A stretch of DNA of 61,333 nucleotides from Asaia bogorensis (GCA_945892765.1 CAMDDQ010000004.1:1-61333), one strand, 5' to 3'. Shown: positions 36,110 through 43,340, counted from the stretch's first letter. Notes: generated from the sequence alone by a model not told the origin. Made by a program: numbers and translations.

Positions 36110-36841
36110 ATGGATATCGACATCCTGCGCGCCCGCGTGGCCGCCATCCCATTTTGGTATCACCGCATCGACCTGCCCGGCGGGGTAACGACGCCCGGCT
36201 GGGCGCCGATGGACGCCGATTCCTATCGGATTCCGAGTGATCTATCCGGGAAGCGGGTTCTGGACGTTGGGGCATGGGATGGCTATTGGACCTTCGCCGC
36301 GCTGGCGCGCGGTGCGCAGGAAGTCGTGGCGATCGACGATTTTTCGGATCATCTCGGGGGAGCCGGCGCGGCTCGCTTGGCTTGGGAGACGTTCGATCTG
36401 TGCCGCGACGCGTTGGGGCTGAATGGGGATCGCTGCCAACGCCGGGAAATTTCGGTCTATGACGTTTCGGAAGCGGCGCTCGGACGTTTCGACATCGTGT
36501 TCTGCTTTGGCACGCCCTACCATCTGCGCCACCCGTTGCTCGCGCTCGACCGTCTGGCCGCCTTGTGTAACGAAGCGATTTTCGTCGAATCGGCTGTTCT
36601 CGACGACTATAGCCCCTATTGGGGTGGGCTTGGACACGGTTATCCGGGTCGTCAGATGGTGATGGAGTTTTATCCGGACGACCGTTATGGCGGCAATGCC
36701 ACCAATTGGTGAGTGCCGACGCTGGAATGTCTGTCGGCGATGACCCGAGCCGCGGGCTTCGCCAAGACGGAGGCCTGGAAACTGGTGGAAAAGCCACAGG
36801 AGCTTGCGCGCTGCCGCGGCTTCGTGCGCGGCGAAAAATAG
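36110..36841 (+). pseudogene. SAM methyltransferase (CmoB/DUF1698-like) with in-frame TGA at 36710-36712
   Basis: WYHRIDL, GKRVLDVGAWDG, YHLRHPLLAL; after TNW* the frame continues VPTLECLSAMTRAAGF... to TAG at 36841. Confidence 0.72.
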
Positions 36842-36852
36842 GATCGCTAAGA

Positions 36853-38403
36853 TCAGACCGGATCGAGCAGTTCGACGTCGATGGACGTGCGGTTGTGCTC
36901 GATCAGGAGCCTTAGCGTCTCGCCCTTGGCGATGGGTCGCGGCGCCTGAAAATTGTGGATGACGTGGAGCCAGCCCGAGGGCGTGTCGTGCAGGCCGGGG
37001 CGGTTTTCGAAAATCGTTTCGTCATCCAGGTAAAGTTTGATCCATTGCGCGACGCCGATGGCGACACCGTTTTCGGTCGCTTCCAGTACGATCTCACTTT
37101 TCCCGGCATCGATATAGGCATCGCCCGGAAAGTCGAAACGCAAAACCTCGCGGTCCGCCGATAACAACCGATACGGATAAAGATCGAGGTTCAGCGCGGA
37201 TTTGAGCGGCGAGAAACGATTGAATTCACTCAGATCGAAGCCGAGGGCTTCGCCGACGAACATTTGTTGGCCTACGGCCTCGCTGCCGAGCAGCGCGATG
37301 ACGGCCGATGCCGCGGCCGGAATAACGCGACCGCCGGGCACAAGAAGATGTTGCCGGGCGTGATCCATCGTCGAAAGGATATGCTCGCCGAGCAACATGG
37401 AATCGAAGGTTTCGGTGACGATGACGTCGGCACGGCTGGGCAGATCCTTGCCGACGATCAAATCGTTGGATCGTTTGCGGATGATCGTGACGCGATCGCC
37501 AAGGCCGTTGCGTGCCATGACGTCCCCGGCGGCGGCTGCGATTGGCGCAACCATTTCGCAGCTATAGACCTTGGCGAAGGCCTCGCGCCCGGCGCACATC
37601 GACAACAGGCCCGCGCCGGTGCCGATATCGAGCACGATGGCATCGCTGCGCGCGGCTCGCGCGATGGCCTGACGATAGGCGGCATTGCGTGGCGTATCAT
37701 TCATCATGGGGAAATGCCAGCGCGGCACTTCCTTGCCGCGCACCGCCCGCAGGCCACGCCGGGCGGCGACGTTTCCGGGCTCTTCCACGACCAGCGTTTC
37801 AAACAACCGCTCGGCGTCTGGCAGACGGACGAGCGTGTGATACACCTGCGCGAGGCGTAGCCGGATGTCCCGGTCGTCGGGCCGCAACGCCGTGGCCTTT
37901 TCGAGCGCGGCGGCGGCATCGTCCATCTTGCCGAAATCGATCAGCGTATTGGCGAGGTTGAACCACGCTCCGACATGATCCGGCTTGGCGGCGACGGCCT
38001 TGCGGAGTTCGACCGCCGCCTCGCGCACGCGGCCGCCGCGGCGGAGCAACGCACCCAGGTTGTTAAGGAGCGCGGCATTGCCGGGGGCGTGCGAAAGGCC
38101 CTCGCGATAGGCCGTCTCGGCCTCGATCACCTTGCCTTGGGCCGCCAGGGTATTGCCAAGGTGCCGCCAGGGATCGGGGTGGCTCGGCACCCGATCGCAG
38201 GCCGCTCGGAGGAATGCGATCGCCGCGCCGCCGCGCCCTAGCCGACTGGCGAGGAGCCCGGCGAAAATCCAGGTTTCGACCAAACGGGGATAATCGCGCC
38301 GTAACTGGTCGTCGATGGCCGAAGCAATATCCAGCCTGCCGTCGGCGAGTGCAGATTGGCCTTCGGCGAGCAATGTCTGTGGGGCATTCAGATCAGCCGA
38401 CAT
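36853..38403 (-). CDS. TPR-repeat protein with PRMT7/9-like arginine methyltransferase domain
   Basis: N-terminal TPRs; VPRWHFPMMNDTPRNAAY, VLDIGTGAGLL, SCEM, double-E loop VTETFDSMLLGE, GGRVIP, beta-barrel-like C-terminus. Confidence 0.85.
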   Translation of the reverse strand: MSADLNAPQTLLAEGQSALADGRLDIASAIDDQLRRDYPRLVETWIFAGLLASRLGRGGAAIAFLRAACDRVPSHPDPWRHLGNTLAAQGKVIEAETAYREGLSHAPGNAALLNNLGALLRRGGRVREAAVELRKAVAAKPDHVGAWFNLANTLIDFGKMDDAAAALEKATALRPDDRDIRLRLAQVYHTLVRLPDAERLFETLVVEEPGNVAARRGLRAVRGKEVPRWHFPMMNDTPRNAAYRQAIARAARSDAIVLDIGTGAGLLSMCAGREAFAKVYSCEMVAPIAAAAGDVMARNGLGDRVTIIRKRSNDLIVGKDLPSRADVIVTETFDSMLLGEHILSTMDHARQHLLVPGGRVIPAAASAVIALLGSEAVGQQMFVGEALGFDLSEFNRFSPLKSALNLDLYPYRLLSADREVLRFDFPGDAYIDAGKSEIVLEATENGVAIGVAQWIKLYLDDETIFENRPGLHDTPSGWLHVIHNFQAPRPIAKGETLRLLIEHNRTSIDVELLDPV

Positions 38404-38462: not shown

Positions 38463-38495
38463 AAAAAAAGAGAGAGCGGCCGAAGCCGCTCTCTC
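38463..38495 (-). terminator. Intrinsic terminator after porin
   Basis: 11-bp stem GAGAGAGCGGC/GCCGCTCTCTC, UUCG loop and U7 on minus strand. Confidence 0.88.
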
Positions 38496-38517: not shown

Positions 38518-39762
38518 TTAGAACGCCAGCCGGATGCCGGTGACCAAACCATACGCCGAACCGCCGTAGCCGGTCGTCGCACCCGAGGGGCCGGGATTGC
38601 CGGGCGACTCATCGTTGAAGTCGTACTTGAAGAGCGACGTTGACCAACGAACGCCCGGTCCGATCGTCCATTCGTTGCCGAACACGAAATATTCACCCTC
38701 GTCGTCGCCGAGGCCAATCGTGTTGTCCTGCTCGCCGCGCAAATGAACGAGGCTGACGCGGCCCGGATAGCCGAGGTTGTAGGTATACGCCAAGCCCACA
38801 TCCCAGGCCGTGCCGTCGATGTTGGTCGTGGTGTTGGAAACGCACGTTGCACCCGCGGTGGCGGCGGTGGTGCCGACGCAACCTGCGTTGTTACGGCCAT
38901 CATTGGTGCCGCCCCATGAAGCGCCGAGGGTGAAGTTACCGTAGGTGAGGTTGGCGCCGATCGTCCAGGCTTGCGCTTTCGGGATTTGGGTCTGGTCGGT
39001 GTCCCACTGCATCCAGCCGCCGCCGAGGGTGAAGGCGACCTGATCGAATGTCTCGGTGTAGTTGAGGCCGAGGGAAACGCCGCGGTTGTATTTGCCGGAC
39101 TTCTGCTCGATGCCCGCGTTGTCGGAGCCGTTGCCGTTGACCGCCGAAGACGGGGTATAGCTGACGCCGAGCTGCAGACCGCTGGAGGCGGTGTTACCGA
39201 ACAGACGCGGCGTGAAATAATTGATCTTCTCGGCGTCGGACTGGAACAGATCGGGCGAGGTCGTGTTGATGGTGCCGTCCGTGCTCGAACCGGTGCGGTT
39301 GGCGCCGCTCTTGGTCTGGCCTTGCGTGGCGCCGAAACCGGCGTTGACGGGACGAATGCCCATCTTTTGCTTCACGTCGTCGGTGGTGCCCAACTGAACG
39401 GTACCGAAACCGCTTTCGATGCTGAGGAAGTTTTCATCGATGTTGTTGGTGCTGTTGGGCAGCGTCGTCGCGCCGGTCTGGTTGTTGCCTTCCAGCTCGA
39501 TGCGGATCGTGAACTTCAACCCATTGTCCAGCGTGGTGGACCCGCTGAAGTAGATTTCCGAGTCCATGTCGAAGTCGACCTTCTGCACGTTGCCCGCGCG
39601 ATCGTCGACATCGAAGAGGTAAAAACGTTGATCGTGGTAGCCGCCAAGCGACAGCTTGATTGGCTCGACCTTAGCCGGTTGTGCTTGGGCGAAGGCAGAC
39701 CCCGTCAATGCAAGAAAGCCTGCGGCGACCAGCGCCGTCGTGCCCAGAAGTTGCTTCTTCAT
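38518..39762 (-). CDS. Outer membrane porin
   Basis: MKKQLLGTTAL signal peptide, DSEIYFSGSTTLDNGL, KINYFTPR, C-terminal GIRLAF. Confidence 0.9.
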   Translation of the reverse strand: MKKQLLGTTALVAAGFLALTGSAFAQAQPAKVEPIKLSLGGYHDQRFYLFDVDDRAGNVQKVDFDMDSEIYFSGSTTLDNGLKFTIRIELEGNNQTGATTLPNSTNNIDENFLSIESGFGTVQLGTTDDVKQKMGIRPVNAGFGATQGQTKSGANRTGSSTDGTINTTSPDLFQSDAEKINYFTPRLFGNTASSGLQLGVSYTPSSAVNGNGSDNAGIEQKSGKYNRGVSLGLNYTETFDQVAFTLGGGWMQWDTDQTQIPKAQAWTIGANLTYGNFTLGASWGGTNDGRNNAGCVGTTAATAGATCVSNTTTNIDGTAWDVGLAYTYNLGYPGRVSLVHLRGEQDNTIGLGDDEGEYFVFGNEWTIGPGVRWSTSLFKYDFNDESPGNPGPSGATTGYGGSAYGLVTGIRLAF

Positions 39763-40084
39763 CGTAGCCCCTCGTTCGTTATGCCCAATGACGGCCAGCG
39801 TTGCGGCCAAATCCCGCGGTCGAACCGCGAACCAGTGGCGCCTTTATCCTTGTGGAGGCGGCCCCAGTCAAGGCGCCAATCCTTAGGGAACTGTGGAAAA
39901 TCGGTTGCTGTGGCGGTTGCGCAACAGTTATTGAGGGGCGTGCCCGGGGCGGTTTGGGGGGAATCTCCCCCCTCTGAAGGTAAAGTTCCATGGGGATACC
40001 TGGCCAATTTTTTGCGGAATTGATGGGATACGGGCTTATAGTTGTGGATATTTTTCGAAGAACCGGTCGAAGGGAATTTCAGGG

Positions 40085-40621
40085 ATGACGAACCGCGTGC
40101 GATTTGGGCTCATAGCGTTGGCCTTGGCCGGCGGGATCCTTGCTGGTTGCCAATATGCCGGCGACACAGCCGCGCCGGAGATTCGGCGCGGCGAGACCAA
40201 TCCGGTGCCCTCCAATGCGCCGCGCGGATCGATGTTGGGCGAGGGTGGGCTGACCCTGTTCGGCAAGGGAGACCCCACGCAAGACCAGGGTGGCGCTCTA
40301 GGCGTCAATTCCCTGCTCTGGCGTGCCTCGCTCGATACGATTTCTTTTATGCCGCTCGCTTCGGCCGATCCCTTTGGCGGCGTGATCCTGACAGATTGGT
40401 TTTCGCCGCCGGAAACGCCGGAGGAGCGGTTCAAGCTCAATATCTTTATTCTTGGGCGACAATTGCGCGCCGACGGCGTGAAAGTCTCCGTCTTCCGCCA
40501 ACAGCGCGCCGCGGGAAATAGCTGGCTCGACGCCGCGGTGGAACCGAGAATTTCGATCGATCTTGAAAATTCCATCCTCACCCGCGCACGCCAGCTTCGT
40601 ATCGATACAGCGAGGCAATAG
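40085..40621 (+). CDS. DUF3576 family lipoprotein
   Basis: Lipobox LAGC; GVNSLLWRASLDT, DPFGGVILTDW, ILTRARQLR. Confidence 0.88.
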   Translation: MTNRVRFGLIALALAGGILAGCQYAGDTAAPEIRRGETNPVPSNAPRGSMLGEGGLTLFGKGDPTQDQGGALGVNSLLWRASLDTISFMPLASADPFGGVILTDWFSPPETPEERFKLNIFILGRQLRADGVKVSVFRQQRAAGNSWLDAAVEPRISIDLENSILTRARQLRIDTARQ

Positions 40622-40772: not shown

Positions 40773-43340
40773 ATGGCAATGGCGCGATACAACTTCAGGG
40801 AAACCGAGGTCAAGTGGCAGGGCCGCTGGGAAACACGGGGGTGTTTCGCCGCGCGCGAGGCCGTCGGCCGCCCGAAATATTACGTCCTAGAGATGTTCCC
40901 CTATCCGTCGGGGCGCATTCACATGGGCCATGTCCGCAATTACACGCTGGGCGACGTGGTGGCGCGCTACAAGCGGGCGCGCGGCTTCAATGTCCTTCAC
41001 CCGATGGGCTGGGATGCATTCGGCCTTCCGGCGGAAAACGCGGCGCGCGACCAAAAAGTACATCCGGCGAAATGGACCTACGACAACATCGCGGCGATGC
41101 GCCGCGAGTTGAAAAGCATGGGCCTTTCGCTGGATTGGGCGCGCGAGATCGCCACCTGCCATCCCGGCTATTACCGCCATCAGCAGCGGATATTCATCGA
41201 TTTTCTGAAGGCGGGCCTGGCCTACCGGAAAGAAGGCTGGGTCAATTGGGACCCCGTCGATCACACCGTTCTGGCCAACGAGCAGGTCATTGACGGCCGC
41301 GGCTGGCGGTCGGGAGCACTGGTGGAAAAGCGCAAGCTGTCACAGTGGTTCTTCAAGATCACCGACCACGCCGAGGATCTGCTGAAGGCGCTCGACGGCC
41401 TTGATCGCTGGCCGGAAAAAGTCCGTCTCATGCAGCAGAACTGGATCGGCCGTTCCGAGGGTGCGCATGTCGATTTCGCGTTGCCTGGACGCGGCGAATC
41501 GCTGCGCGTTTTCACGACTCGGCCGGACACGCTGTTCGGTGCTTTTTTCCTAGCGTTGTCGCCAAATCATCCGCTGGCCGTCGCGCTCGCCGCCGCCGAT
41601 CCCGGCCTTGCGGATTTCATCGCCGAATGCAACCGGACCTCGACCAGCGAGGCGGCAATCGAAGCCCAGGAAAAGCGCGGCTTCGACACCGGATTGAAAG
41701 CCACTCATCCGTTCATCGCCGATCGCCGCCTGCCGGTCTATGTCGCGAATTTCGTCCTGATGGAATACGGTACCGGCGCCATTTTTGGCTGCCCGGCGCA
41801 TGATCAGCGCGATCTCGATTTCGCCCGCAAATACGGCTTGCCGGTTCTGCCCGTCGTCTGCCCGCGCGACGTCGACCCAACGGCGTTAGGCATCGGGGAA
41901 GAGGCGTATTTGGGTGACGGAATCGTCGTTCACTCGGAATTTCTGAACGGGCTATCGGTAGCCGCAGCGAAAGACGCGGCTATCGGCCGCCTGGTGCAAC
42001 AAGGTGCCGGTGAACGCGTCGTGATGTGGCGGTTGCGCGATTGGGGTGTTTCCCGCCAGCGTTATTGGGGATGCCCCATTCCCGTTATTCATTGCGCCGT
42101 CTGCGGCGTGGTGCCGGTACCGGAGCGGGACCTACCGGTGTTGTTGCCCGACGACGTGACCTTCGACAAACCTGGCAATCCGCTCGACCGGCACCCAAGC
42201 TGGAAACACGTTTCCTGTCCGGCCTGCGGCAAGCCGGCTCAACGCGAGACCGACACTTTCGACACCTTTGTCGATTCGGCTTGGTATTTCGCGCGATTCT
42301 GCGCGCCGCGGTCCGAGCGGCCGGTCGAACGCGACGCTGTCGATTATTGGCTGGCGGTGGATCAGTATATCGGCGGCGTGGAGCATGCCATCCTGCATCT
42401 GCTCTACGCCCGATTTTTCACGCGCGCGATGCGTCAAACCGGGCATGTGACTGTGAGCGAGCCGTTCGCCGGGCTGTTTACGCAAGGCATGGTCTGTCAT
42501 GAATCCTACCGGGACGAGGACGGCAAATGGCTGTATCCGGAGGAAGTGGACAAGCGCGGCGACGGCAGCGCCGTTCATGCCGCGACCGGGCGGCCCGTCG
42601 TCATCGGCCGCCGCGAGGTGATGAGCAAGTCGAAGAAGAACGTGGTGGCCCCGGCGAGCATCATCGATAATTTCGGCGCCGACACGGCGCGGCTTTTCAT
42701 GCTTTCCGATTCCCCGCCGGATCGAGACCTGGAATGGAGCGATTCGGGCGTGGATGGCGCCTGGCGCTATCTGAATCGCCTGTGGCGCCTGGTTGATGAG
42801 CCGCACATTCCGCTGGGGCTTGGGAGCGAATCTGCGTCGGCGCAGAATGGGCAGGCATCAACAACATTACGCGCCATCCACAAGACCATTCATTTCGTGA
42901 CCGACGATTTGGAGAAGTTTCACTTCAATCGAGCGGTTGCCCGAATCCGCGAATTGACCAATCTTTTGGCCGAAATGCCGGCGGCCGAGCCGGGTGCCGG
43001 TGGTGTTTATCGGTTCGGCGTGGAAACGGCCGTGCGCCTGATCGGCCCGATGATCCCGCATCTTGCCGCGGAGCTGTGGGAGAGGTTGAATCATGAGACG
43101 ATGCTAGTGGATGAGCCCTGGCCGGTGGCCGATCCGACGCTGGTGCTCGACGATATTTTGACCATCGCTGTCCAAGTGAACGGCAAGCTGCGCGGGACGG
43201 TAGCGCTGCCGCGCGACGTTGACGGGGCGGAGGCGCAGGCCGCCGCGCTCGCACTGCCCGCGGTGGACAAAATGCTCGACGGCAAGGCGCCACGCAAAGT
43301 CGTGGTTATCCCCAACCGGATCATCAATGTTGTCCTTTAG
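40773..43340 (+). CDS. leuS: Leucine--tRNA ligase
   Basis: [20 protein letters not shown] editing domain, MSKSKKN. Confidence 0.98.

Follow-up and report, generated by a model that had tools for sequence, protein, structure and literature searches.

Protein arginine methylation by enzymes with the fold of protein arginine methyltransferases (PRMTs) is treated as a eukaryotic trait. We asked whether a gene on the minus strand of a 61,333-nucleotide stretch of Asaia bogorensis DNA (GCA_945892765.1, CAMDDQ010000004.1:1-61333; hereafter the window) encodes a bacterial enzyme of this kind, in which a tetratricopeptide repeat (TPR) domain precedes a PRMT module. A preliminary description of the window had proposed a PRMT9-like protein serving an uncharacterised bacterial arginine-methylation system. 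We found that the window protein genuinely belongs, as a so far uncharacterised member, to a large family of bacterial proteins, whose likeness to PRMTs is already present in automatic names and in print, and that by its predicted structure it is a PRMT-fold protein with a complete PRMT core.

Domain organization of the window protein

The open reading frame (ORF) coincides exactly with the one first described, and all the sequence motifs named then were located in it, namely the helix motif, motif I, post-I, the double-E loop as well as the SGW loop below. Motif III had been absent from that list. The features of the gene are as follows, with S-adenosylmethionine abbreviated as SAM and AlphaFold2 as AF2.

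36853..38403, minus strand: complete TPR-PRMT ORF with ATG start, 516 residues, TPR domain and a single PRMT module
37735..38385, minus strand: TPR domain, residues 7-223, six helix pairs and a capping helix (Pfam, AF2 helices)
37675..37722, minus strand: N-terminal PRMT helix motif RWHFPMMNDTPRNAAY, residues 228-243 (invariant residues, PRMT9 alignment)
37318..37671, minus strand: Rossmann SAM-binding domain, residues 245-362 (AF2 model, motifs, alignment)
37609-37635, minus strand: motif I VLDIGTGAG, residues 257-265
37555-37563, minus strand: post-I SCE, residues 281-283
37384..37413, minus strand: double-E loop ETFDSMLLGE, residues 331-340 (E331, E340)
37318-37347, minus strand: motif III LLVPGGRVIP, residues 353-362
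36856..37317, minus strand: PRMT beta-barrel domain, residues 363-516 (AF2 strands, alignment to PRMT9/7/1/3/6 barrels)
37198..37284, minus strand: predicted dimerisation arm in the barrel, residues 374-402 (helices H375-381 and H392-397, homodimer model)
36970..36978, minus strand: THW-loop equivalent SGW, residues 476-478

A Pfam scan assigned the N-terminal half to TPR_19 (E 1e-20) and TPR_16 (3.6e-19), with TPR matches over approximately residues 40-220. An AF2 model built on a family alignment of 46 sequences (A1), which also served for the family profile, reached a mean predicted local distance difference test (pLDDT) score of 95.7 and a predicted TM score of 0.87. It contains 13 helices before residue 224, from H7-20 to H212-223, that form six TPR pairs and a capping helix. 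After these come the N-terminal PRMT helices, two in number and short, then a Rossmann fold and lastly a beta-barrel with a helical insertion at residues 374-402. Both Pfam and the model thus bear out the several TPRs reported before the core, and the single PRMT module reported earlier agrees with the length of 516 residues and the one module in the model.

Structural and sequence kinship with PRMT9 and PRMT7

The preliminary description would have been overturned by a best structural match to PrmA or to a methyltransferase lacking the PRMT barrel; Foldseek and VIA-align searches with the model gave PRMTs only among the matches listed. The top Foldseek match in the PDB was Bos taurus PRMT9 (8rbk, E 1.8e-25, 432 columns), and the next were PRMT7 and PRMT9 entries. 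VIA-align was run on Foldseek's top 1000 chains, and all 50 entries listed were PRMTs with alignments reaching residue 514-516 at the C-terminus. Trypanosoma brucei PRMT7 scored highest (Z 31.5, 311 residues aligned, root-mean-square deviation 3.0), followed by human PRMT9 (Z 31.2) and 8rbk (Z 30.2, 388 residues aligned), while type I PRMTs gave Z 27.5-28.2. On 8rbk, residues 109-516 of the model, with four TPRs included, superposed on residues 31-472. The C-terminal beta-barrel with an arm that marks the PRMT family is accordingly part of the predicted structure, with barrel alignments at Z 27.5-31.5 through residue 516.

Sequence comparison pointed the same way. A phmmer search of PDB sequences found 8rbk (E 1.6e-38), mouse PRMT7 (4c4a, 1e-34) and human PRMT9 (6pdm, 2.5e-33), with type I PRMTs at about 1e-14 to 1e-19; identity to the PRMT9 structures was 24-29%. 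Chance would not produce a likeness to PRMT9 and PRMT7 of anything near this strength. The phmmer alignment ran from query residue 148 to 355, that is from TPR 5 through the double-E loop, against 8rbk 55-263. Opposite the query motifs, bovine PRMT9 reads rwhfimlndtkrn and vtetvdaglfge, so that the PRMT9 motifs given in the preliminary description proved accurate. The A1 family profile matched 8rbk with 329.5 bits in one stretch that spans both the TPRs and the core (profile 78-438 to chain 58-452). Human PRMT9 (6pdm) scored 297 bits, mouse PRMT7 288, T. brucei PRMT7 202 and Caenorhabditis elegans PRMT7 179, and the type I enzymes followed with 134 (PRMT6), 132 (PRMT1), 128 (PRMT2), 126 (PRMT3) and 119 bits (CARM1). 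Since the profile gives 329.5 bits to PRMT9 and 288 to PRMT7 as against 119-134 to type I PRMTs, the bacterial family is specifically closer to PRMT9 and PRMT7.

The window protein shares with PRMT9 N-terminal TPRs that run without an insertion or deletion into the catalytic module, the motifs WHFxM(L/M)NDxxRN and TET(F/V)DxxLxGE, the absence of a histidine at the THW-loop position, the highest profile score and the longest structural match. It differs in having one module, whereas PRMT9 has two in tandem that form a pseudo-dimer, in its low identity and bacterial placement, and in a longer TPR region, the six TPRs and cap extending beyond the part that superposes on 8rbk. The known substrate of PRMT9, for which a passage in PMC7224190 gives the name SAP145, belongs to the spliceosome. 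Bacteria do not have this protein. T. brucei PRMT7 (4m38, 5eku) resembles the window protein in its single catalytic module and has the highest structural Z, but it lacks a TPR domain and its profile score is well below that of PRMT9. Mouse PRMT7 further differs in its THW loop, for which a passage in the same paper gives His313-Trp314, where the window protein has SGW.

Conservation of the catalytic residues

The 46 sequences of A1 are invariant at W229, H230, R239, N240, G261, G263, G265, E331, E340 and W478, and likewise at C282 and W454, among others; the post-I residue E283 is nearly invariant. The Rossmann domain thus contains the GxGxG motif I and the post-I acidic residue that are typical of PRMTs, and E331 and E340 are the two glutamates nine residues apart by which a passage in PMC12153873 defines the double-E loop. 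A wider set of 122 catalytic modules, with 93 bacterial-type rows and 16 eukaryotic PRMT9-like rows among them, gave the same picture. E331 was kept in 93/93 bacterial rows, E340 in 91/93 and W478 in 93/93, so the double-E loop is intact as first described. The residue preceding W478 was more variable: of the 93 bacterial rows, 50 have H, 23 have G and 12 have C at this position, and 11 of the 16 eukaryotic PRMT9-like rows have C (mostly xCW). The SGW sequence had been taken for a degenerate THW loop. The reading of the residues stands, but because G occurs in 23/93 bacterial rows and C in 11/16 PRMT9-like rows, SGW is a common variant of the family, and the absence of the histidine is common to named PRMT9s.

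A predicted homodimer

T. brucei PRMT7 and type I PRMTs pair, and a single-module enzyme is expected to pair likewise. Complex prediction with two copies of residues 215-516 gave a model score of 0.83, compared with 0.00 for the best of three controls. Among proteins of solved structure, 20 of the 30 solved as same-chain pairs and 1 of the 23 solved as single chains reached the 0.83 mark, counts that hold only roughly here because a custom alignment was used. Contacts agreed to at least 94% between runs, and the partner pLDDT was at least 88. In the modelled interface, the arm (residues 376-402) lies against the partner's Rossmann helices (264-299) and N-terminal helices (222-244), suggesting the canonical PRMT arm-to-Rossmann dimer and a use of the barrel arm like that in PRMT7. 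Because PRMT dimers have already been solved, this score may reflect likeness to them rather than pairing of the window protein itself.

Proposed function and competing explanations

The evidence above supports a model in which the window protein, as a homodimer guided by its TPRs, methylates arginine in proteins or peptides; we assign this model a probability of roughly 0.7. The enzyme would work in the cytoplasm as a PRMT-family methyltransferase that depends on SAM. Its Rossmann domain would bind SAM via motif I and post-I E283, while E331 and E340 of the double-E loop, and with them the W478 loop, would hold the substrate guanidinium. The methyl group would then be passed on to one of the terminal nitrogens of an arginine that is part of a protein or peptide. 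The two chains of the dimer would pair head to tail, the barrel arm of each on the partner's Rossmann domain, like single-module PRMTs, and the six-repeat TPR solenoid, joined rigidly to the core as in PRMT9, would recruit the substrate. We infer arginine as the acceptor and the TPR domain as the substrate-recognition part; by kinship with PRMT7 and PRMT9, the product would be monomethylarginine or symmetric dimethylarginine rather than asymmetric dimethylarginine.

Several observations weigh against this model. The THW loop retains W478, while its T and H are replaced. In the catalytic half, the sole Pfam match is a marginal one to PrmA (22.9 bits, cut-off 22), and PRMT_C (PF22528) has no significant match on the window protein. 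Of 80 loci in other species, compared with 3-kb flanks, at most 7 had any given neighbouring gene family in common, and no conserved neighbour hints at a substrate. Finally, we found no paper on a bacterial TPR-PRMT, or on a tested bacterial PRMT-fold arginine methyltransferase, among open-access papers and preprints.

Chief among the rivals is a methylase that has this fold but works on peptides or small molecules. Under this explanation the acceptor would be something other than protein arginine, either a peptide (free or non-ribosomal) or a small compound of the guanidino or amine type, and the TPRs would be an assembly or carrier-binding domain. In its favour is a paralog in the same genome (G000:C38:16899-18425, L032:9400-10926, plus strand), a protein of 508 residues that is 35% identical, has the same motifs and matches PRMT_C at E 5.3e-13. 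The paralog is retained in both genomes of the genus, with a ratio of nonsynonymous to synonymous substitution rates (dN/dS) of 0.094. Its neighbours are an ATP-grasp gene in divergent orientation, the genes of an Opp-type peptide ABC transporter (SBP_bac_5, a permease and two ATPases) and an S15 X-Pro dipeptidyl-peptidase, a peptide-centred setting that the same-genus genome has conserved. A section of a 2012 review (PMC3417536) notes bacterial PRMT homologues, citing a 2011 chapter, and describes the bacterial PRMT-like 'peptide methylases' of Aravind and colleagues, from within which the eukaryotic PRMTs are said to derive. As described there, these are bacterial members of the PRMT radiation, as is the window protein, but they sit in secondary-metabolite operons or giant synthetases, whereas the window protein is a TPR fusion whose gene stands alone in housekeeping surroundings. 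That gene is without biosynthetic neighbours (porin, DUF3576, LeuS, YggS and YkuD), and the low recurrence of any neighbour family in the 80 loci argues in the same direction. Moreover, the arginine clamp formed by the double-E loop does not vary, and protein arginine methyltransferase is the name borne by PRMT9 and PRMT7, the closest relatives of solved structure. We consider this rival unlikely.

We next weighed a TPR scaffold without catalytic activity, in other words a PRMT pseudoenzyme comparable to the second module in PRMT7 and PRMT9. The missing THW-loop histidine and the missing PRMT_C match would fit it; against it, the SAM-binding and double-E residues are all intact and invariant across the family, and named PRMT9-like proteins are also without the histidine. 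Selection argues likewise. Relative to a syntenic ortholog of 94% amino-acid identity in the one other genome of the genus (G001), dN/dS was 0.119 overall, so the gene is under purifying selection, and the catalytic part is more constrained (0.083) than the TPR part (0.172). A dead scaffold is improbable on these grounds.

A PrmA-type methyltransferase, acting on a lysine or the N-terminus of ribosomal protein L11, is effectively refuted by the fold, and we give it very little weight. The window protein shares with PrmA a class I Rossmann SAM-binding core, the weak Pfam match mentioned above agrees with it, and the relatives P0049, P0050 and P0053 bear the source name '50S ribosomal protein L11 methyltransferase'. 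However, the Pfam match is limited to the generic SAM-binding part (residues 246-349 of 516), and the protein fails the NCBIfam equivalog prmA (TIGR00406) by a wide margin, with 21.1 bits against a cut-off of 183.15. The double-E loop and PRMT barrel are present, in line with the PRMTs that make up the listed structural matches. PrmA itself is not known to have either.

A eukaryotic contaminant in a metagenome bin, or animal PRMT9 transferred very recently, has only the animal PRMT9s among the best PDB matches in its favour and is refuted by context and tree, given a 61-kb contig with bacterial housekeeping genes, synteny in the second genome of the genus, a G+C content near the gene of 0.62 as in the rest of the window, the low identity to PRMT9 and a 49-row all-bacterial clade; its probability is negligible.

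Phylogeny and origin of PRMT9

We built a quick maximum-likelihood tree of the 122 catalytic modules (IQ-TREE, LG+C20+F+G4 with posterior mean site frequencies, PMSF), with support from the Shimodaira–Hasegawa-like approximate likelihood ratio test (SH-aLRT) only. The rows comprised 93 bacterial-type modules (the window protein and its paralog included), 16 named eukaryotic ones, 11 unnamed metagenomic ones and, as outgroup, 2 distant deltaproteobacterial methyltransferases; beforehand, clustering at about 52% identity had brought 253 candidate modules down to 84 representatives. Predicted eukaryotic proteins whose domain hits were split (e.g. P0343, P0344, P0351) were left out, and the tree is without type I PRMTs, PRMT5 and named PRMT7 (PRMT1-8 not included). 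The support stars of such a quick tree with long rows deserve caution, and the root rests on two distant sequences.

The window protein grouped with P0002 and a protein from an alphaproteobacterial metagenome-assembled genome (SH-aLRT 98), within the 49-row all-bacterial clade, which has an SH-aLRT of 99. The 20 rows of the PRMT9 clade (SH-aLRT 100) comprised 8 unnamed metagenomic rows and 12 named eukaryotic ones, of which 11 were animal PRMT9-like proteins and one was a long-branched plant sequence (Oxalis P0394). Both clades fell within a 116-row clade (SH-aLRT 98), outside which stood the outgroup and four short bacterial forms that have no TPRs. Between the bacterial clade and the PRMT9 clade, the backbone lacks resolution. 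The phylogeny with eukaryotic PRMTs that had been called for was thus obtained for PRMT9-like and related proteins, and it places the window protein apart from PRMT9. The term "PRMT9-like" accordingly holds for the fold and for the likeness to PRMT9 and PRMT7 seen by profile, Foldseek and VIA-align. An orthologue of PRMT9 was considered and rejected, as the protein lies in a separate all-bacterial clade and has a single module in 516 residues.

The tree is consistent with an origin of PRMT9 within the bacterial TPR-PRMT radiation, with which it agrees without proving it. A wider proposal, that bacterial TPR-PRMTs are true protein arginine methyltransferases and also the stock from which eukaryotic PRMT9 (perhaps PRMT7) came via transfer and module duplication, is tentative, and we would sooner bet against it than for it. 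In PRMT9-like proteins a second module was matched more weakly. Green-algal two-module proteins grouped with the paralog-bearing bacterial clade (SH-aLRT 92, unstarred) and not with animal PRMT9.

Two further module arrangements were observed. The green-algal/eukprot proteins P0355, P0358 and P0359 (about 1060-1160 residues) have two PRMT modules that each score 154-177 bits against the bacterial profile, the second module of animal PRMT9 being weak. The metagenomic proteins P0387 and P0372 (768 and 885 residues) show the reverse order, a weak module and then a strong bacterial-like one (231-232 bits).

Distribution and annotation of the family

PRMTs had been regarded at the outset as mainly eukaryotic, with the rarity in bacteria that this implies. 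An exhaustive search of representative proteins returned 2188 proteins at E <= 1e-30; the best 150 of these were mostly 400-850 residues long, and their matches began near query residue 50-110 and ended near 510, covering TPRs and core. In GTDB species genomes, a relative was encoded in at least 290 of 599 pattern hits. The names of the 80 loci kept include Rhodospirillaceae, Micropepsaceae, Sphingomonas, Rhizobium tropici, R. phaseoli, Bradyrhizobium, Nitrospirillum, Magnetococcales, Burkholderiales, Alcaligenaceae, Methylophilaceae, Desulfobulbaceae, Myxococcales, cyanobacteria and Bacteroidota. The family was present in 9 of 40 genomes of relatives (6 of the 23 other genomes of the same taxonomic family) at E <= 1e-10, and in 14 of 401 genomes of a phylum-wide sample (13 of the 394 of high quality) at E <= 1e-25. 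PF22528 had no match in any of 14 well-known control genomes. The TPR-PRMT family is thus large and patchy across bacterial phyla. The supposed rarity does not survive the hundreds of bacterial relatives, the PRMT names at JGI and the earlier mention of bacterial homologues in print; a passage in PMC10117894 also refers to predicted, unstudied PRMTs of Legionella.

Existing names are uneven. NCBI calls relatives 'tetratricopeptide repeat protein' or '50S ribosomal protein L11 methyltransferase', labels that are uninformative or wrong for genes of this family. At JGI, some carry the name 'type II protein arginine methyltransferase' or 'protein arginine N-methyltransferase 7', so the PRMT likeness has already been caught by automatic pipelines. 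Four relatives of 364-376 residues (P0049, P0050, P0053 and P0328; Sphingomonas, Allosphingosinicella and Oharaeibacter) are without TPRs, apparently by secondary loss, as they are nested in the TPR-bearing bacterial clade; the L11 methyltransferase name that NCBI gives to such TPR-less relatives is probably a misannotation. The ESM Atlas holds clusters from Bacteria, Archaea and Eukaryota with the generic name 'L11 methyltransferase' that combine PrmA and PRMT_C, which we take as leads only.

The family combines the full catalytic apparatus with the TPR-then-core order of PRMT9 and is found in culturable Rhizobium, Bradyrhizobium and Sphingomonas. Two questions are thereby opened to testing, PRMT-type arginine methylation in bacteria together with its substrates, and the source of PRMT9 and PRMT7. 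If the proposed function and origin were true, many free-living bacteria would have an overlooked methylarginine writer, and the odd architecture of PRMT9 would have been invented in bacteria. We rate the interest of the locus as moderate, since it brings methylation of the PRMT type in bacteria, and with it the origin of PRMT9, within reach of experiment.

Genomic context

The window belongs to a 2.24-Mb assembly of 173 contigs that is 94.5% complete. Around the TPR-PRMT gene lie an SDR epimerase, a YkuD L,D-transpeptidase, YggS and a convergent DUF1698/Methyltransf_9-like methyltransferase, with a porin upstream, and DUF3576 and LeuS. Among 15 loci from the window genome and its relatives, this arrangement was common only to the same-genus genome, and the ORF families that recurred were frame shadows of the TPR-PRMT gene itself or ABC-transporter proteins. 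Because no neighbour is conserved across these 15 loci or the 80 from other species, the TPR-PRMT is a stand-alone gene, and the multi-gene "system" of the preliminary description is not borne out.

One further feature lies between the porin gene and the TPR-PRMT gene.

38470..38495, minus strand: terminator-like hairpin after the upstream porin gene (11-pair stem, 8 G-C pairs, T-run)

The hairpin, strong and of the intrinsic-terminator type in appearance, stands right behind the Porin_4 gene (38518-39810) and leaves 67 nucleotides for a promoter and ribosome-binding site. Since it separates off the porin gene, a promoter belonging to the TPR-PRMT gene itself is probable within these 67 nucleotides ahead of the ATG.

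Matching sequencing runs comprised 17 DNA runs from freshwater or lake metagenomes, with no RNA run among them. On the other side, the DUF1698/Methyltransf_9-like SAM methyltransferase (about 200 residues, window 36110-36712, plus strand) converges on the TPR-PRMT gene and adjoins it only in the same-genus genome. Its start is probably ATG 36110 or later, because the longest ORF, from 35624, overlaps yggS on the opposite strand. Directly upstream of leuS (40773-43340) lies a DUF3576 lipoprotein-like gene (window 40085-40621, plus strand), at a place first taken for that of lptE.

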